A DNA stretch of 64,000 bases from an uncultured Candidatus Saccharibacteria bacterium. GTDB lineage: Bacteria; Patescibacteriota; Saccharimonadia; Saccharimonadales; SZUA-47. The position numbers were made by a program, and so were the translations under genes. Under the pieces are notes generated by a model. That model ran no database searches. It was not told the DNA's origin and saw only the letters and a program-made list of their open reading frames with translations. Location: the NCBI GenBank assembly GCA_964536485.1, contig CAZHXX010000001.1, forward strand, positions 21,643-85,642, in the 5' to 3' direction. How positions within the stretch are numbered: the first letter of the stretch is position 1; every line of letters begins with the position of its first letter. Below are positions 2,867 through 22,271 of this stretch, piece by piece.

Positions 2867-4558
2867 ATGCATCACGACTTATTTGCCGAACTCAGTACCG
2901 TCCTTGCCTTGACCGCAGGTGTAGCTCTGCTTGCCCGCCTTTTAAAACAACCGCTAATCATCGCGTACATTGTTACCGGCATCTTGGTTGGGCCTTCTGC
3001 TTTTAACCTCCTTGGCGACCCCGAAGCGATAGAGTCGTTTGGCAAATTTGGTATCGCCCTCCTTCTCTTTATTGTTGGGCTGGGATTAAATTATAAGGCG
3101 GTGAAAGAAGTTGGGAAAACTGCCGTATTTACCGGGGTAGGTCAAGTTGTATGCACGACCGCTATAGGATTTTTTGTTTCAAAAGTTCTTAATTACTCCG
3201 TAACAGAGAGTATCTATATTGCGGTAGCACTAGCCTTTAGTAGCACCATTATTGTGCTCAAACTTCTCAATGATAAAAAAGAGCAAAATAAACTTTATGG
3301 GAAAATATCTATTGGGTTTCTTCTTGTACAAGACGTTATCGCAACCCTTGCACTCGTTGTCGCATCTGCATCTAGTAGCGGAAGCTTACAGCTAAGTGAC
3401 TTTGCGATACTTTTCGCAAAAGGTGTTTTGCTTGCCTGTGCGTTGTATGGAGCAAACAAACTATTGCTTACTCCTATAGCAAAGTTCCTCTCGCGTTCCC
3501 AAGAACTACTCTTTTTATTCACACTTTCTTGGGGATTTGGGATTGGCGCAATATTCAAAGAAGTAGGCTTCTCTCTCGAGATAGGTGCTCTTGCGGCTGG
3601 CGTGAGTATGGCCGGCATGCATTACGCCCAAGATGTGGCCTCAAAACTTCGACCTTTGCGTGATTTTTTCATTGTTATTTTCTTTATCGTTCTTGGGGCT
3701 ACGCTTAACATCTCTTCAGTGGGGAGCGTGCTGTTGCAGGCAGTACTCTACTCTTCTATCGTGTTAGTAGGTAACCCTATTGTGGTCATGACCATCATGG
3801 GGCTCTTAGGCTATACAAAGAAAACTAGTTTTAAGGCAGGCTTAGCTGTTGCCCAGATAAGCGAATTCTCAATTATCTTTATCTTGCTTGGTGCGAGTAA
3901 CGGCCAAATCAAGGATGAGGTCGTGTCGCTTATCACGGTTGTTGCCCTTATTACTATTGCGCTTTCTTCCTATATGATTATCTACGCCGAGTCACTCTAC
4001 ACTCGACTCGAGCACTACCTCAGCCTGTTTGAAAGGCGAAAAATACGCCCCGAAAAAGCACCAAAGCGCGCTTACGAAGCGGTAGTCTTTGGCTACAAAA
4101 AAGGTGGCAGTGAATTCGTAAAAACCTTCCACTCTATGGGGAGTCGGTTTATTGTTATCGACTACGACCCAGACGTTATCGATACCCTTAACCGAGACAA
4201 CATCGAGTATCTGTATGGCGACACCAACGACTCAGAACTCTTAGAGGAACTAGATATCTCAAAGTTAAAGATGGCCGTCATATCGATTACCGATTTTTCT
4301 ACCAACACCTATATTCTTCAATTAATGAATCGGCTCAACCCCTCATGCGTAGTGATTTGCCACTCAGAAAATATTGCCGAGGCAGCGGAGCTCTACACAC
4401 TTGGCGCAAGCTACGTCATGCTTCCTCACTACATTGGAAGCGAAAAAATCAGCGCTTTCATAAAGAAAAATGGTTACAAAAAAACCGAATACAAGAAATT
4501 CCACGACAAGCACATCGCCTATATTCGCAGTCACTTTAACGCAGAGTCAGCAGAATAA
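2867..4558 (+). CDS. CPA2 cation:proton antiporter with C-terminal RCK/TrkA-N domain (Kef-type)
   Basis: 563 aa. About 12 TM helices typical of the Na+/H+ exchanger family, then a Rossmann-like segment (AVVFGYKKGGSEFVKTF...IVIDYDPDV). Confidence 0.85.
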   Translation: MHHDLFAELSTVLALTAGVALLARLLKQPLIIAYIVTGILVGPSAFNLLGDPEAIESFGKFGIALLLFIVGLGLNYKAVKEVGKTAVFTGVGQVVCTTAIGFFVSKVLNYSVTESIYIAVALAFSSTIIVLKLLNDKKEQNKLYGKISIGFLLVQDVIATLALVVASASSSGSLQLSDFAILFAKGVLLACALYGANKLLLTPIAKFLSRSQELLFLFTLSWGFGIGAIFKEVGFSLEIGALAAGVSMAGMHYAQDVASKLRPLRDFFIVIFFIVLGATLNISSVGSVLLQAVLYSSIVLVGNPIVVMTIMGLLGYTKKTSFKAGLAVAQISEFSIIFILLGASNGQIKDEVVSLITVVALITIALSSYMIIYAESLYTRLEHYLSLFERRKIRPEKAPKRAYEAVVFGYKKGGSEFVKTFHSMGSRFIVIDYDPDVIDTLNRDNIEYLYGDTNDSELLEELDISKLKMAVISITDFSTNTYILQLMNRLNPSCVVICHSENIAEAAELYTLGASYVMLPHYIGSEKISAFIKKNGYKKTEYKKFHDKHIAYIRSHFNAESAE

Positions 4559-5151
4559 AGACCGTTTTCTTTTATGTACTCATACACCGCTTTGGGTACA
4601 TCTTCAGCATAGTGATGTATGTCTTTGCGAATACGCGTAGAATTTAACTCATAATCTTGTCTTAAAGGACGATGAGTATGTACAACATCAACTCCGTGCA
4701 ATTCTTCTAAGTAAACCGAAAAATCATGATCACGCCCCATCACGACAATCTTCTTAACCCCAATATCATGAAGCTTATCGATGTCTTTCCATGACGCGAT
4801 ACCTCCTTCAACATCCTGGCCAATGAGCCAAACGAAGCTGTTATTTGGGAACTTTTCAGTAAGCCACGTAAAGGTCTCAACCACCCAGTGATTGTTCGCA
4901 GGATAATCGACTACTTCTAGAGAAGGCTCATCTTTAACAGCTATTCTTAACATGTTAAGTCTGTGTTGGTAAGGTGTCGCTCCGTGCTTATGTTGCGGTA
5001 CTCTCTCCGGTAAGAAAACTACTCTAGACCCGTAATACAGTGCTTTTCTAGCCGCAGAAAGATGGCCGTTATGTACTGGGTCAAACACCCCGGCAAAAAC
5101 GACTATTGAGCCTTGCCTGCCACCCCAACTCTTCAAAAAGTCGTTAGCCAT
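4531..5151 (-). CDS. nadD: nicotinate-nucleotide adenylyltransferase
   Basis: HxGH motif (GVFDPVHNGHL) and a C-terminal STRIR motif (LNSTRIRKDI). I place the start at ATG 5151, which overlaps the TAA of the upstream Zn-ribbon ORF (TAATG). The ORF-track start at 5175 is an alternative. Confidence 0.75.
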   Translation of the reverse strand: MANDFLKSWGGRQGSIVVFAGVFDPVHNGHLSAARKALYYGSRVVFLPERVPQHKHGATPYQHRLNMLRIAVKDEPSLEVVDYPANNHWVVETFTWLTEKFPNNSFVWLIGQDVEGGIASWKDIDKLHDIGVKKIVVMGRDHDFSVYLEELHGVDVVHTHRPLRQDYELNSTRIRKDIHHYAEDVPKAVYEYIKENGLYSADSALK

Positions 5152-5339
5152 TACAGTGCCATACCTTCGCAACATTTCGTCTTATAATGACATTGCGGGC
5201 ATTCATAGTGTCCATGTACAGGAAGCAAAGGATAAAACCCGCACAACTCACAAAAATACTCTATAGAGCACTGAGATAAATCAGAGCTATTCCTGTTTTC
5301 AGGCTGCTTTTGCAGTGAATTGTTTTCGTTTGTTACCAT
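5151..5339 (-). CDS. small Cys4 zinc-ribbon protein
   Basis: 62 aa with CELCG...(18 aa)...CPQCH. It overlaps the 3' end of the 520-aa gene by 41 nt and is stop/start-coupled to nadD. Confidence 0.45.
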   Translation of the reverse strand: MVTNENNSLQKQPENRNSSDLSQCSIEYFCELCGFYPLLPVHGHYECPQCHYKTKCCEGMAL

Positions 5340-6861
5340 GATTGTTCTCTACAAGTGTAGCAAGTTTCTTTTTCCATAGTGGTGCTGGTTTTGGTTTTTC
5401 TTCTTTTGGTGCGCACACCATGCCCTTACAACTAGAAACTTGGCACTTCTCTAATAATTCCCCTCTTTTTCTCTCGTTTCTGTGCCCTTCCGTGCAGTGA
5501 AAAACTAGGGCCCCAAAGCTGTCTTCTGCCGTATCTTCAGCATCAACATTTTCTCTAAGCTTCCCGCCAAAGATATCTTGCAATCCAAAAAGTTCATCGG
5601 TACTTTTTACTTCGCCGTTCACATCACGCGAGTGCAATGAGCTCCCGCTACACCCACCATATGATCGCTTTGCTTCTGTTCCCGCTCGTACATTTTGTAC
5701 CATCTGTCTTATTAGATCCTTTTGTTGCTGCAAAACAGCTCCATAGACAAATGTAGCCATTTGCTCTCGTCTCAAAGAAATTGGTGTAGTAAGCAATTCT
5801 GTAGAATTCGTTTCTTTATACATGTATGTTGGGAGTTCTTTTCTTAGCTCTTCAACGAGGGCGTAGGTAATCATTTCATCCATAAGACGAGCATCAGCAT
5901 CCTCAAAACTCGTTCTTTTACTAATTTGCATTAGTTGCACTCGTTTAGCCCAGTCAATAGAATCAACATGGGCAAGTGCGCGCGCTAATTCTTGCAATCT
6001 CTTGTCATTTGTTTTGGTATGAGTTGCTTCTGCAAGCTTCGGAACATATGTAGCAAAATACTTTTGCACCGTTGCATCTTGTCGTGCCAGGAAGTCAGTG
6101 ACTGAATACTCCTTACGTGCATCACCGATAAACTCTCGATGATACTTTTTAAGTTGATGCCCAAGTTGCTTAGCATCATTAATTGAACCAGCCTTTCGCA
6201 TGTGTAGAGTAAGCCACTGCTCATCTTTTACATCTTTTGGGACCAGATATCCAAGTTTCGCAAAAGCTTTTCGCATCGCTTGTGTGTCACTACGTTTTAT
6301 ACAAATCACTCCAGCTTTTAGTTCAGTTTCACTTACGCGGTAGTACCACTGCCAAATAGCCATACCTTCACGGTAATTCATGTGGTTTTCCCAAAAATCC
6401 TTGTCATCTTTAATTGCGTCTTTTGGATCCATACTGAGAGCCCCAATCATCTCACCGACTTCCAATTGGTCTACTGCTAATGCTAATAGTGTATCGTTCT
6501 TATCTCTCTCAGCTTGTATCGCCATTCTAGGGTCTGATTCTATTGCCTTGATAGAGCGCGTCTCGCCGTTTCTCACCATGTCTATCACTTGTTCCCCATG
6601 CTCTGTCACTGCATGCCCGTCAACTATCTCTAGAGTTCTCGAATTATCAAAGATGAGCTGTTCGCCATATTCCGGGTCAGTTGCAAGATGTTCCTCAAGT
6701 CGGGTGTAAAAATCATTCCATACACGTGTTAAATACCCGTTAGGTTCTTGTAAAAGCTCTGGCAGAGACCGCTCGACCGCAACACTCCCAAGCATACGGA
6801 CAGCAGAGAGCGAATGCCCATACTGCTCTCTTTCAAGTAACTGCTCAGCGCTGACTTGCAT
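5299..6861 (-). CDS. uncharacterised 520-aa protein with a C-terminal Cys/His cluster
   Basis: Long ORF with coding character. C-terminal FHCTEGH...(14 aa)...CQVSSCKGMVC. I recognise no family. Confidence 0.7.
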   Translation of the reverse strand: MQVSAEQLLEREQYGHSLSAVRMLGSVAVERSLPELLQEPNGYLTRVWNDFYTRLEEHLATDPEYGEQLIFDNSRTLEIVDGHAVTEHGEQVIDMVRNGETRSIKAIESDPRMAIQAERDKNDTLLALAVDQLEVGEMIGALSMDPKDAIKDDKDFWENHMNYREGMAIWQWYYRVSETELKAGVICIKRSDTQAMRKAFAKLGYLVPKDVKDEQWLTLHMRKAGSINDAKQLGHQLKKYHREFIGDARKEYSVTDFLARQDATVQKYFATYVPKLAEATHTKTNDKRLQELARALAHVDSIDWAKRVQLMQISKRTSFEDADARLMDEMITYALVEELRKELPTYMYKETNSTELLTTPISLRREQMATFVYGAVLQQQKDLIRQMVQNVRAGTEAKRSYGGCSGSSLHSRDVNGEVKSTDELFGLQDIFGGKLRENVDAEDTAEDSFGALVFHCTEGHRNERKRGELLEKCQVSSCKGMVCAPKEEKPKPAPLWKKKLATLVENNHGNKRKQFTAKAA

Positions 6862-6902
6862 AAATCAAAAAACCCTCTTTTTTACCTGAGCAAAAAAGAG
6901 GG
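6862..6902 (-). terminator. terminator-type hairpin 4 nt upstream of the 520-aa gene start (attenuator / SD-sequestering stem)
   Basis: On the minus strand, CCCTCTTTTTT-gctcaggt-AAAAAAGAGGG forms an 11-bp stem followed by TTTTTTGATTT and then ATG. The GAGGG in the 3' arm is the only SD-like element. Confidence 0.6.
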
Positions 6903-7065
6903 CGTGAATACAATTAATTCATGCTTGTTCTTCCTGCTCGGGAATTTATTCTGTATCGGGCTTATCAGCTTTATGGCCAAATTACCGTTGCGGCACAGCG
7001 TAGGATTCTCACCTACTTCCAGTTGTGTTACTTTTAATGGCGGTTAAACCACTAGTAGTGTAGCA
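6862..7065 (-). promoter_or_regulatory. about 190-nt 5' leader (candidate riboswitch/attenuator) with a TGcTACACT promoter at 7065-7057
   Basis: An extended -10 box on the minus strand is followed by a leader containing the hairpin GTAGG-TGAGAAT-CCTAC and ending in the terminator above. There is no upstream co-directional gene that this terminator could serve. Confidence 0.4.
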
Positions 7066-7104
7066 CTAAGTTTCTACGCTAGATATAGTATTTTTGTACA
7101 CATT

Positions 7105-7119
7105 TGGTAGAATGTCCCT
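7105..7119 (+). promoter_or_regulatory. extended -10 (TGgTAGAAT) placed 6 nt before ATG 7120 (leaderless-type promoter)
   Basis: Sequence tggtagaat-gtccct-ATG. Confidence 0.5.
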
Positions 7120-8133
7120 ATGGCTGAAGCAACAGGCTATACCCCTGTAATTTCAAGTGAGGTAACTCCTTTACGAGAAGCGTACGAAGATGCGGAGGCT
7201 GTTAGTTTGACCAAAAATCTCGATGGGCATAACGATGAAAATGACGGATTCACATTAGTAGAACCAGGCAGTTACGATTTTCAACGCCTTGATTGTATTG
7301 CGGTACACGGCAAAAACGCAACTGCTGAAGAAATCAGAAGCCTCGCAAGCGTTGTGTACCCTGCTACGGAACAAGTTATTGAGAGATTTGCCGCTCGTAA
7401 AGATTTACTAAACCATGCCGCGTCTTTACTCCTTAATGGTAAAGAACTTGCAATGATGACTGATCACTACAAAAGTGTTATCGGCATAGCAGTTGCAGGT
7501 GGTGCGTTCCTTTGTGCACTCTATGAGAACACTCCTGTCAGGCCAGAGGATATCGAAGCAAACCTATTTGCAAGTTATTTTGTGAAATATACAAAGTTGC
7601 AAGGTGCTTTCCCTACTTCTGAAGTTCTTGCTGGGATATTTTCGCAAACGACCTACACTCTACCACCTAGCCCTTCAGTAAGAGACGTAGTACCAAAAAC
7701 TGTTAGAGATGACGTAAACAAGGCAAGCATGGCTCAATTTTTGAGCCATGGTGAAAACCTGTCAGAGCCTCCTAAAGGACGATTCACAATGTTCGCTGGT
7801 AGTGGTAGCCGTGATGTCACGATATCTTCTATGAATCATACAGAGGATACAAAAAGATTTATACCTAAAGTTACACACATGGGACCGCTAGCCTTTGGCA
7901 CTGCAGACATTACAATGCGTATTCCTACTATGGCGGTGGGGATCGACATCAGCTCGGGCAAACCAAGATGCTTTATCGGTGAAATACCTCCAACCCCTTT
8001 TGATAAAACCTTTGAAGCTGACGCCGCGATGACTACCATCGCACAACAGATGTCACGTACGGGGCATCCAAGGATATATCACCCGTCTCGGCATACTTTT
8101 TATCAGGCTATCGGCAAAAACCTTGGACAGTAA
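7120..8133 (+). CDS. hypothetical protein (337 aa)
   Basis: Long ORF with a leaderless-type promoter. Only a faint and unconvincing resemblance to acyltransferase motifs (TDHYKS, FAGSGSRD). Confidence 0.65.
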   Translation: MAEATGYTPVISSEVTPLREAYEDAEAVSLTKNLDGHNDENDGFTLVEPGSYDFQRLDCIAVHGKNATAEEIRSLASVVYPATEQVIERFAARKDLLNHAASLLLNGKELAMMTDHYKSVIGIAVAGGAFLCALYENTPVRPEDIEANLFASYFVKYTKLQGAFPTSEVLAGIFSQTTYTLPPSPSVRDVVPKTVRDDVNKASMAQFLSHGENLSEPPKGRFTMFAGSGSRDVTISSMNHTEDTKRFIPKVTHMGPLAFGTADITMRIPTMAVGIDISSGKPRCFIGEIPPTPFDKTFEADAAMTTIAQQMSRTGHPRIYHPSRHTFYQAIGKNLGQ

Positions 8134-12954: not shown

Positions 12955-13029
12955 TCCCGAGTAGCTCAATGGTGGAGCAAAAAGCTGTTAACTTTGAGGT
13001 TGCCAGTTCGAGTCTGGCCTCGGGAGCCA
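12955..13029 (+). tRNA. tRNA-Asn: tRNA-Asn (anticodon GTT), CCA encoded
   Basis: Cloverleaf read by eye: acceptor TCCCGAG/CTCGGGA, D arm GCTC..GAGC, anticodon stem AAAAG/CTTTG with loop CTGTTAA, T arm GCCAG-TTCGAGT-CTGGC, discriminator G, then CCA. Confidence 0.9.
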
Positions 13030-21632: not shown

Positions 21633-22271
21633 ATGTTAACTAAAACAACCATCTACGAAACCCAGCGAGGGCTCATGGTTATGAACGGAAAAATTGTAAG
21701 GGAGTTGGGGCCTGGCGTTTATCGAACGTTTAAGCGCTCTTCCCGAGAATTTTTCATCTATCCTAAGACCGCCCAGGCATACGTTGTGCCAAACAACTGT
21801 AGGTCAAAGGACAGCGCCAGCTTTATCGTAGACGTACCGACGATGATATCTATCGTAGACATACGTACCTACTTCTTAAGTAGTGTCACTTACTATCAGG
21901 AAGTAGCTCGGGTATGCACAAAACATATCCAGGAAATAACCGGAACCTTAACTCTTGCTGAGATTCTAGCAGAACCATTAAAACTAGACGGAGCAACGCT
22001 TAACGAAGAGCTTGCCAAGTGTGGGCTTGCGATAACAATTGAAGGTCCTATTGAAACGCGTCTTCCAAGAAACCTCCAGAATGCGATAGATGCACAGGAA
22101 GTTGCGCGCCAGAAGGCAAAGGCAGAAATAGAAGAAGCGCGCGGGCGGACCGCAGTGTTGCGCCACTATGCAAATGCCGCCAAACTAACAAAAGATAATC
22201 CGGACGTCCTTCGTTTGTTGCTTGGCCAAAAGGCAAAGTCTATAAACGTCGCGTTTGATGCAAGGAACTAA
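21633..22271 (+). CDS. SPFH/Band-7 (slipin-like) domain protein
   Basis: RGLMVMNGKIVRELGPGVY...CRSKDSASFIVDVPTMISIVD...LAITIEGPIETRLPRNLQNAIDAQEVARQKAKAEIEEARG is the SPFH core followed by a coiled coil. AAGGAG SD upstream. Confidence 0.75.
   Translation: MLTKTTIYETQRGLMVMNGKIVRELGPGVYRTFKRSSREFFIYPKTAQAYVVPNNCRSKDSASFIVDVPTMISIVDIRTYFLSSVTYYQEVARVCTKHIQEITGTLTLAEILAEPLKLDGATLNEELAKCGLAITIEGPIETRLPRNLQNAIDAQEVARQKAKAEIEEARGRTAVLRHYANAAKLTKDNPDVLRLLLGQKAKSINVAFDARN

Follow-up and report, generated by a model that had tools for sequence, protein, structure and literature searches.

What is the function of the unusually long leader, of about 190 nt, that precedes an uncharacterised operon in an uncultured Candidatus Saccharibacteria bacterium? 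The locus lies in a window of 64,000 nucleotides (positions 21,643 to 85,642 of the forward strand of contig CAZHXX010000001.1, assembly GCA_964536485.1); positions given below without a contig or locus name are those of the window, and both the leader and its operon are encoded on the minus strand. Our analysis indicates that the leader is very probably a short-type cobalamin (vitamin B12) riboswitch devoid of a large P6 extension, particular to this lineage and endowed with a putative OFF mechanism. This reading draws on the conservation of sequence and structure, covariation, the energies of alternative pairings and genomic associations, and it is from these that three things are predicted: that a ligand binds, in which direction the switch works and that the regulator NrdR binds at the promoter. 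The RNA itself is a sub-threshold addition to an already known riboswitch class; the interest that remains resides in the protein family that it controls, represented here by a protein of 520 aa, and in the probable dual control of this family by the riboswitch and NrdR.

Identity and structure of the leader RNA

The Rfam family Cobalamin (RF00174, clan CL00101) has a gathering threshold of 31.5 bits, and a search of the whole window at gathering thresholds returns tRNA only and no riboswitch. A permissive scan of positions 6780-7180 (401 nt) aligns RF00174 to 7020-6953 with 28.7 bits (E 1.3e-5), and the same element is the sole match in a scan of the whole genome (E 7.3e-6; 962 kb, 98.8% complete), where it is thus unique. 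Among 41 genomes (our own and 40 relatives), 32 have one RF00174 match each at E <= 1 and five pass the gathering score, with 31.6-41.9 bits, which means that the Rfam threshold misses most members of this lineage. Other sub-threshold matches, to the PyrG leader, PyrR and the L10 leader (E 0.27-0.62), were rejected because they involve the terminator hairpin alone.

The leader comprises the following elements.

7057-7065, minus: extended -10 box TGCTACACT, read from the sequence, its TGnTAnnnT pattern kept in most orthologous loci
7035-7054, minus: optional 5' hairpin UAGUGGU-UUAACC-GCCAUUA, a predicted fold outside the tested structure
6951-7022, minus: cobalamin aptamer core, from the RF00174 match, covariation and the covariance model R1 (below)
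7022-7020 with 6953-6951, minus: P3 of the core
between P3 and P4, minus: J3/4 of the core, GAA
7016-7000, minus: P4 of the core, the hairpin GTAGG-TGAGAAT-CCTAC
6997-6989, minus: P5 and L5 of the core, L5 being UGCCG at 6995-6991
6987-6957, minus: short P6 of the core
6963-6953, minus: J6/3 of the core, AAGCCCGAUAC
6931-6944, minus: regulatory hairpin P13 (UUCC-CGAGCA-GGAA), whose stem covaries; L13 at 6940-6935
6888-6939, minus: antiterminator pairing of GAGCAGGAAG (6939-6930) with UUUUUUGCUC (6897-6888), from folding energies
6867-6903, minus: intrinsic terminator (stem 6903-6872, U tract to 6867), from a terminator scan and the sequence

The structure was tested on an alignment of 23 leaders with a short P6, for which P3, P4, P5, the base of P6, P13 and an L5-L13 pseudoknot were written by hand. 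Paired cells amount to 95.4% of 524, against 82.8% in shuffles; changes on both sides occur in 11 of the 23 pairs, with pairs in P3, P4, P5, the P6 base and the P13 stem among them; and the covariation score of 0.357 compares with 0.130 in shuffles, none of 500 reaching it, and with 0.06-0.10 when the partners are slid. RNAalifold, unaided, recovered P4, the P6 base and P13. The helices P3 to P6 thus make up a four-way junction with conserved junction and loop sequences. The original prediction, made by eye, had excluded cobalamin, a judgement that turns out to be wrong because of the Rfam core match, the matching elements in relatives and the covariation that supports the helices; it had rightly presented the leader as a cis-regulatory riboswitch candidate, the structure being conserved and covarying and the terminator also sequestering the Shine-Dalgarno sequence (SD). 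Of the checks that it proposed, the Rfam search gave the Cobalamin match just under threshold, and alignment of orthologous leaders gave the covariation reported above.

The covariance model R1, built from the 23-leader alignment, matches the window element with 97 bits (7044-6929) and, when applied to 151 genomes from the whole class, finds the element in 32 of them, in single copy in 31 and in two copies in G048, with E down to 6e-19. R1 aligns 57 loci, among which both P5 pairs covary as well. One of these loci, L014, originates from the unpublished genome G010 and accounts for one of the 41 genomes, one of the 57 sequences, one of the 49 terminator loci and one of the 33 matrix boxes considered below; it was excluded from the 23-leader alignment, from R1 and from the covariation test, and no conclusion rests on it.

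Thirty loci share a layout that runs from a promoter palindrome, the extended -10, the variable 5' hairpin, UUAACAA, P3, GGAA and P4 through GCUGUGCCGCAAC, a short or long P6, AAGYCNGAUAC and the P3 return to a CGAGCA-loop hairpin, the terminator and the start codon. The 5' hairpin varies in sequence and length in some orthologous loci and is lacking in others. The B12 box in J6/3, AAGCCC-GAUAC, departs from the model (gAGCCAGGAGAC) by one deletion and two changes, and AAGYCNGAYAC is kept across orthologous loci. The P6 extension, which takes up 62 positions of the model, is reduced to 11 nt in the window element, which therefore lacks the hallmark of class I (adenosylcobalamin) riboswitches; long P6 inserts are present in the orthologues L012, L014, L017, L018, L019 and L026. 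Two side observations concern conserved or expanded parts of the RNA. The UUAACAA motif 5' of P3 (GUAACACAA in the window; 7022-7040, minus) is kept across most loci, with no partner assignable to it. A second riboswitch copy in genome G028 (L081:3039-3260, minus, contig C13), which has about 60 additional nucleotides within P4, was missed by the Rfam scan; R1 finds it with 54 bits, and it precedes the G028 homologue of the 520-aa protein.

The loops L5 and L13 do not vary in their pairing nucleotides: L5 is UGCCG in 57 of 57 loci and L13 is CGAGCA in 52 (L022 and L026, read by eye, included), the others having CGCGCA, CGUGCA, CGGGCA or CGUAGCA. Variation within the resulting pattern, CG-N(1-2)-GCA, is confined to N, the one or two positions for which no partner is predicted in a kissing complex. 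All 23 aligned sequences allow five complementary L5-L13 pairs, with at least one nucleotide unpaired. According to Polaski et al. (PMC5028336), the L5-L13 kissing loop of known cobalamin riboswitches is cobalamin-dependent and leaves at least one nucleotide unpaired, and the variation that we observe in L13 agrees with this loop rule as stated there.

Three observations weigh against the assignment. The score of the window element lies under the gathering threshold and the match extends over model positions 47-167 only; the five kissing-loop pairs are invariant and carry no covariation, so that the contact is backed by complementarity instead; and the related genomes are kin, for which reason counts across them are not independent.

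Downstream genes and the vitamin B12 context

Saccharibacteria live as ultrasmall epibionts, and their genomes measure about 1 Mb. The sole ribonucleotide reductase large subunit found in the genome under study is the class II, vitamin B12-dependent NrdJ (NF005122, 1378.6 bits), and no class III reductase was found. A CobA-type adenosyltransferase is present; searches of the same genome found no PduO-type enzyme, B12-binding domain, DUF4430 or FecCD permease and no known B12 transporter, and DUF6580 had no match either, this last blank being weak because its control matched nowhere. Since the only ribonucleotide reductase needs adenosylcobalamin and no known B12 transporter was found, the single riboswitch points at genes that manage the B12 dependency. 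At the level of the 151 genomes, NrdJ scores above its cut-off in all 32 riboswitch carriers and in 39 of the 119 non-carriers, so that the element is associated with a B12-dependent gene, and in family f18 the three carriers are three of the four genomes with a true NrdJ; because the genomes are kin, this association is descriptive only. The NrdJ model itself splits the 151 genomes into 71 above the cut-off (about 408-640 bits) and about 56 just below it (about 349-397 bits, positions 3-592), with four further matches that are weaker or partial; the group just below the cut-off probably holds a different reductase subclass.

The presumed operon consists of three genes.

5299-6861, minus: P0001, a soluble protein of 520 aa, first gene, uncharacterised family (open reading frame and motifs)
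5151-5339, minus: P0019, a Cys-rich protein of 62 aa with two CxxC motifs and a terminal CC, conserved
4531-5175, minus: nadD-like nucleotidyltransferase, last gene (PF01467, 2.5e-17)

The P0001 family is characterised by the motifs RSYGGCSG and QDxFGG and by a Cys-rich, zinc-ribbon-like C-terminal end. P0001 matches nothing in Pfam or NCBIfam; 65 family members searched against Pfam gave only seven single-member hits (E 0.002-0.01), and the best hit of the family profile among Protein Data Bank (PDB) sequences has E 0.33. The hits of that search include a short stretch in which the GRSYGGC motif resembles serine hydroxymethyltransferase (E 0.87). In the predicted model of P0001 (mean pLDDT 74.8, pTM 0.70), residues 20-350 are the confident part. 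A Foldseek comparison with PDB and viral models gave nothing at E <= 0.001 (best E 0.02, TM about 0.1), and VIA-align against 48,161 chains gave a best Z of 4.8, none reaching 5 and no reductase being listed, with the C-terminal third barely covered. Residues about 71-250 bear a weak PAS/LOV-like resemblance (Z 3.2-4.5) that is below the level at which the tool is meaningful and serves as a lead only, and the ESM Atlas offers only zinc-knuckle-like neighbours (<= 0.87). No likeness of P0001 to a reductase or a glycyl-radical barrel appeared in Pfam, NCBIfam, the PDB profile search, Foldseek or VIA-align, an absence that excludes no family. None of the 65 family members has a hydrophobic segment.

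A search of 1.84 billion representatives puts the family at no fewer than 335 clusters (E <= 0.001). Behind the riboswitch there are 55 open reading frames of 100 aa or more; the family profile matches 25 of these directly and 41 after iteration, the post-iteration E-values being inflated because hits enter the model. A wider profile finds the family in 15 of the 151 genomes. All 15 carry the riboswitch, with every hit located downstream of it at a distance of no more than about 1.6 kb; among the genomes searched, the P0001 family thus occurs only behind this riboswitch and hence only together with NrdJ. P0019, which has the look of a zinc ribbon or rubredoxin and no family match, was located by tblastn between the P0001 homologue and nadD in four of ten syntenic loci (L062, L068, L069, L071; 44-74% identity). 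The nadD-like gene, the only copy in the genome, matches the NadD equivalogs below all their cut-offs and lies downstream of the cargo in eight of the ten syntenic loci, whatever that cargo is. The conserved order is uppP, riboswitch, cargo, 62-aa Cys-rich gene, nadD, Na/H exchanger, Trx-like and CBS genes.

The cargo of this riboswitch in other lineages is either a DUF4430 gene with a gene for a DUF6580 membrane protein or a DUF4430 gene with one for a prenyltransferase-like alpha-toroid protein, DUF4430 genes standing behind it in 11 of the 57 loci at the equivalent position before nadD. Loci L052, L053, L058 and L059 encode a membrane-anchored DUF4430 protein followed by a secreted alpha-toroid protein (by Pfam scan for L052 and L058, by likeness for L053 and L059). 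We take such a pair to resemble the two domains of transcobalamin, and to judge by sequence the two proteins look like a split B12 binder of the transcobalamin type. DUF4430 is given as the C-terminal domain of transcobalamins in PMC4350170. Genome G007 (99% complete) has NrdJ and a DUF4430-DUF6580 cargo and no member of the 520-aa family, G062 holds both cargo kinds in one operon, and G028 has two riboswitches, one for each cargo kind. Because the cargo kinds replace each other at the same position, a role of the 520-aa family in the acquisition or handling of B12 is favoured.

These gene contents also bear on whether the fold might sense something other than cobalamin, for instance another form of corrinoid or, outside that group, a metabolite such as an NAD precursor. 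The sub-threshold Rfam score and the missing P6 extension speak for this, and the presence of a nadD-like gene in the operon had led the original prediction to suggest NAD-related ligands; but the cobalamin model fits the sequences of the core junction, the carriers all have the B12-dependent NrdJ, the element drives transcobalamin-like DUF4430 genes elsewhere, and nadD follows cargo of any kind. Given this indifference to the cargo and the fact that the nadD-like gene is the sole genome copy, an NAD ligand is without support, and we regard either kind of alternative ligand as improbable.

Terminator and predicted switching mechanism

The expression platform of the putative cobalamin riboswitch ends directly before the operon. 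The terminator at 6903-6872 has 14 pairs (5 G-C), a loop of 4 nt and the tail TTTTTGATTT, with TTTTT, and its stem is worth -19.5 kcal/mol, so that a G+C stem-loop with a U tract is in place; its arms, CCCTCTTTTTT and AAAAAAGAGGG, are followed by the T run and the ATG at 6861-6859 (minus). A terminator scan of 6500-7400 calls two sites, against 0.9 +/- 1.0 in shuffles. The Shine-Dalgarno GAGGG (6877-6873) lies inside the 3' arm of the terminator, and there is no other SD in the leader. As a whole, the leader (7065-6850) folds with -59.5 kcal/mol, compared with -46.1 +/- 4.3 in 200 shuffles (z = -3.1; one shuffle equal), and its transcript would start near 7050. The original prediction is accurate on the anatomy: the extended -10, the leader of about 190 nt and the hairpin adjoining the ATG are all found in the sequence, the scan calling the 14-bp hairpin independently; the only SD-like GAGGG is where it had been placed; and the 520-aa open reading frame (5299-6861, minus) and a divergent one of 337 aa (7120-8133, plus) are as described.

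In the mechanism that we propose, a corrinoid would bind the P3-P6 four-way junction and thereby stabilise the kissing contact between L5 (UGCCG) and L13 (CG-A-GCA); with P13 locked, the hairpin at 6903-6872 would form, and transcription would terminate at the U tract with the SD buried and the operon off. Without B12, P13 would be weak, and its loop and 3' strand would pair with the 5' arm and loop of the terminator, allowing the polymerase to read through into the genes for the 520-aa protein, the 62-aa Cys-rich protein and nadD. When the nascent leader is folded up to the terminator loop, the antiterminator is worth -17.3 kcal/mol, against -2.5 kcal/mol for P13 by itself. With the 3' arm included, the terminator fold is the more stable one at equilibrium (-26.8 kcal/mol), a point that counts against the mechanism unless the switch is kinetic, as it then has to be, with the antiterminator forming first. 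The pairing energies fit a B12-dependent kinetic OFF switch of this sort.

The comparative evidence is consistent with such competition. A terminator-like hairpin was called by script in 52 of the 57 loci (the five without one include one at a contig edge), and three wrong hairpins (L028, L029, L057) were dropped; the layout of aptamer, P13, terminator and start codon is therefore kept in 49 of 57 loci. Across the 49, the duplex of the strand from P13 through its 3' side with the 5' arm and loop of the terminator averages -10.6 kcal/mol, compared with -7.0 kcal/mol when the partners are shuffled, and in 21 of the 49 at most 5% of the shuffles reach the observed duplex energy. None of nine other terminators in the window attains the -11.8 kcal/mol of the window duplex. 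Less favourable to the mechanism are the comparison of that duplex with its own shuffles (-8.7 +/- 2.2; 9% equal it), which is not significant alone, and the seven loci with DUF4430 cargo that show no complementarity between P13 and the terminator.

The original prediction also allowed that the terminator might close a separate small RNA, in which case the 520-aa gene would have a start of its own near 6861. A strong terminator only 5 nt before the ATG is what one would expect of such an RNA; the space between the U tract and the ATG leaves no room for a promoter, however, the sole Shine-Dalgarno is inside the terminator arm, and the layout kept in the 49 loci is enriched in complementarity between P13 and the terminator, all of which makes a separate small RNA very unlikely.

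Promoter site, known systems and neighbouring features

A feature that the original prediction did not contain lies immediately upstream of the leader promoter.

7076-7091, minus: NrdR-box-like partial palindrome ATACTATATCTAGCGT, 16 bp, with the TG of the extended -10 following 10 bp downstream

This site is unique in the window and lies 14 bp upstream of a conserved half-site, ACACTAC, that overlaps the -10. It has all six of the highly conserved NrdR-box positions (C4, A6, A8, T9, T11, G13) named in a 2026 study (PMC13584703). Template scores of at least 12/16 are reached in 34 of the 57 orthologous loci, compared with 2% of random windows, and each of the six key positions is kept in 36-42 of 43 loci; with a matrix derived from 33 other loci, the window box scores 26.4 bits and is the best in the genome, the runner-up having 16.6. 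NrdR itself is encoded directly upstream of nrdJ (TIGR00244, 190.2 bits; cut-off 124.65), and two palindromic boxes, GCGCTAGCTATAGCGG and AGCGCTAAATGTAGGA, separated by a 15-bp linker and recognised by eye, precede nrdR-nrdJ (L061:354-400, G000 contig C9). Two further NrdR-box-like sites, 16 bp apart and outside the window (G000 contig C2:44016-44063), lie upstream of genes for an 82-aa CxxC redoxin (NrdH/glutaredoxin-like) and a 313-aa thioredoxin-reductase-like protein, which suggests that the NrdR regulon in this genome includes electron donors of the reductase. Telling against NrdR control is that neither at the riboswitch promoter nor in most of the loci did a search find a second box at the canonical 15-16 bp; the half-site after the 14-bp linker has a matrix score of -0.5 and four of the six key positions. 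Given a strong box and an encoded NrdR, yet a second box that is only half-site-like, NrdR control is likely but unproven, and NrdR probably represses transcription initiation through the promoter box. A leader controlled merely by NrdR, or a protein-dependent attenuator, with an Rfam similarity arisen by chance, could claim the box-like site and the sub-threshold match in its favour, but it is highly improbable given that covariation backs the cobalamin helices, that five orthologues exceed the Rfam threshold and that R1 finds a single element in almost every carrier, with E-values down to 6e-19.

The function of P0001 may be considered from this dual control. We see a real, if somewhat less than even, prospect that P0001 has some B12-handling role, such as that of a cytoplasmic corrinoid-capture or activation factor for NrdJ. 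Because control by both NrdR and a B12 riboswitch marks back-up reductases elsewhere and the family co-occurs with NrdJ, P0001 and P0019 might instead form a B12-independent stand-in for NrdJ that would sustain the supply of deoxyribonucleotides in B12 shortage, which we consider unlikely. In Streptomyces coelicolor, Borovok and Grinberg, both in 2006, reportedly placed the class Ia nrdABS operon under a B12 riboswitch and NrdR, beside the B12-dependent nrdRJ. The operon names nrdABS and nrdRJ appear in the introduction of PMC13584703. The likeness to that system consists in a B12 riboswitch and an NrdR site in an organism with nrdR-nrdJ; the differences are that the gene here is no recognisable reductase and that the second NrdR box is non-canonical.

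Among cobalamin riboswitches, the element is closest to the env8HyCbl or short class II type, with which it shares the P3-P6 four-way junction without a P6 extension, the sequences GGAA, GGUG...AAUCC in P4/L4 and GCCGCAAC-GUAA, as well as a kissing loop between L5 and L13 that leaves a nucleotide unpaired and that, in the known class, depends on the ligand (PMC5028336). It differs in that L13 contains no ribosome-binding site and P13 competes with a downstream terminator that holds the SD, and also in its score below gathering, in L5 and L13 fixed across the lineage and in the long P6 insert of some orthologues. The class I adenosylcobalamin riboswitches of the Escherichia coli btuB type are alike in ligand family and core junction; their P6 extension takes about 60 nt in the model, as opposed to the 11 nt here, and they act mainly on translation. 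The likeness to B12-riboswitch DUF4430 uptake operons lies in related loci that carry such cargo under this riboswitch, whereas our own genome has no DUF4430, DUF6580 or FecCD match and a cargo that is soluble and without hydrophobic segments.

Outside subscription papers and supplementary files, our literature search turned up no cobalamin riboswitch described from Saccharibacteria or Patescibacteria. The element would be a natural ligand-controlled expression element for a group without genetic tools, and a 2024 perspective (PMC11665869) names riboswitches as promising for such use. Since it has no known fold or function and is under B12 and probably NrdR control, the P0001 family, with its several hundred clusters, is a concrete candidate for a missing step in the B12 or deoxynucleotide economy.

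As for the neighbourhood, the -10 box of the divergent 337-aa gene, TGGTAGAAT, ends 6 nt before its ATG at 7120, so that its mRNA is likely leaderless; the remark that most other first genes in the window have no leader thus holds for this neighbour, the one gene for which it was checked. The protein has no Pfam or NCBIfam match, and the gene is missing from the equivalent position in ten related loci; for want of synteny there, it was dropped as a functional partner of the operon. Further along the plus strand, a tRNA gene occupies 12955-13026.

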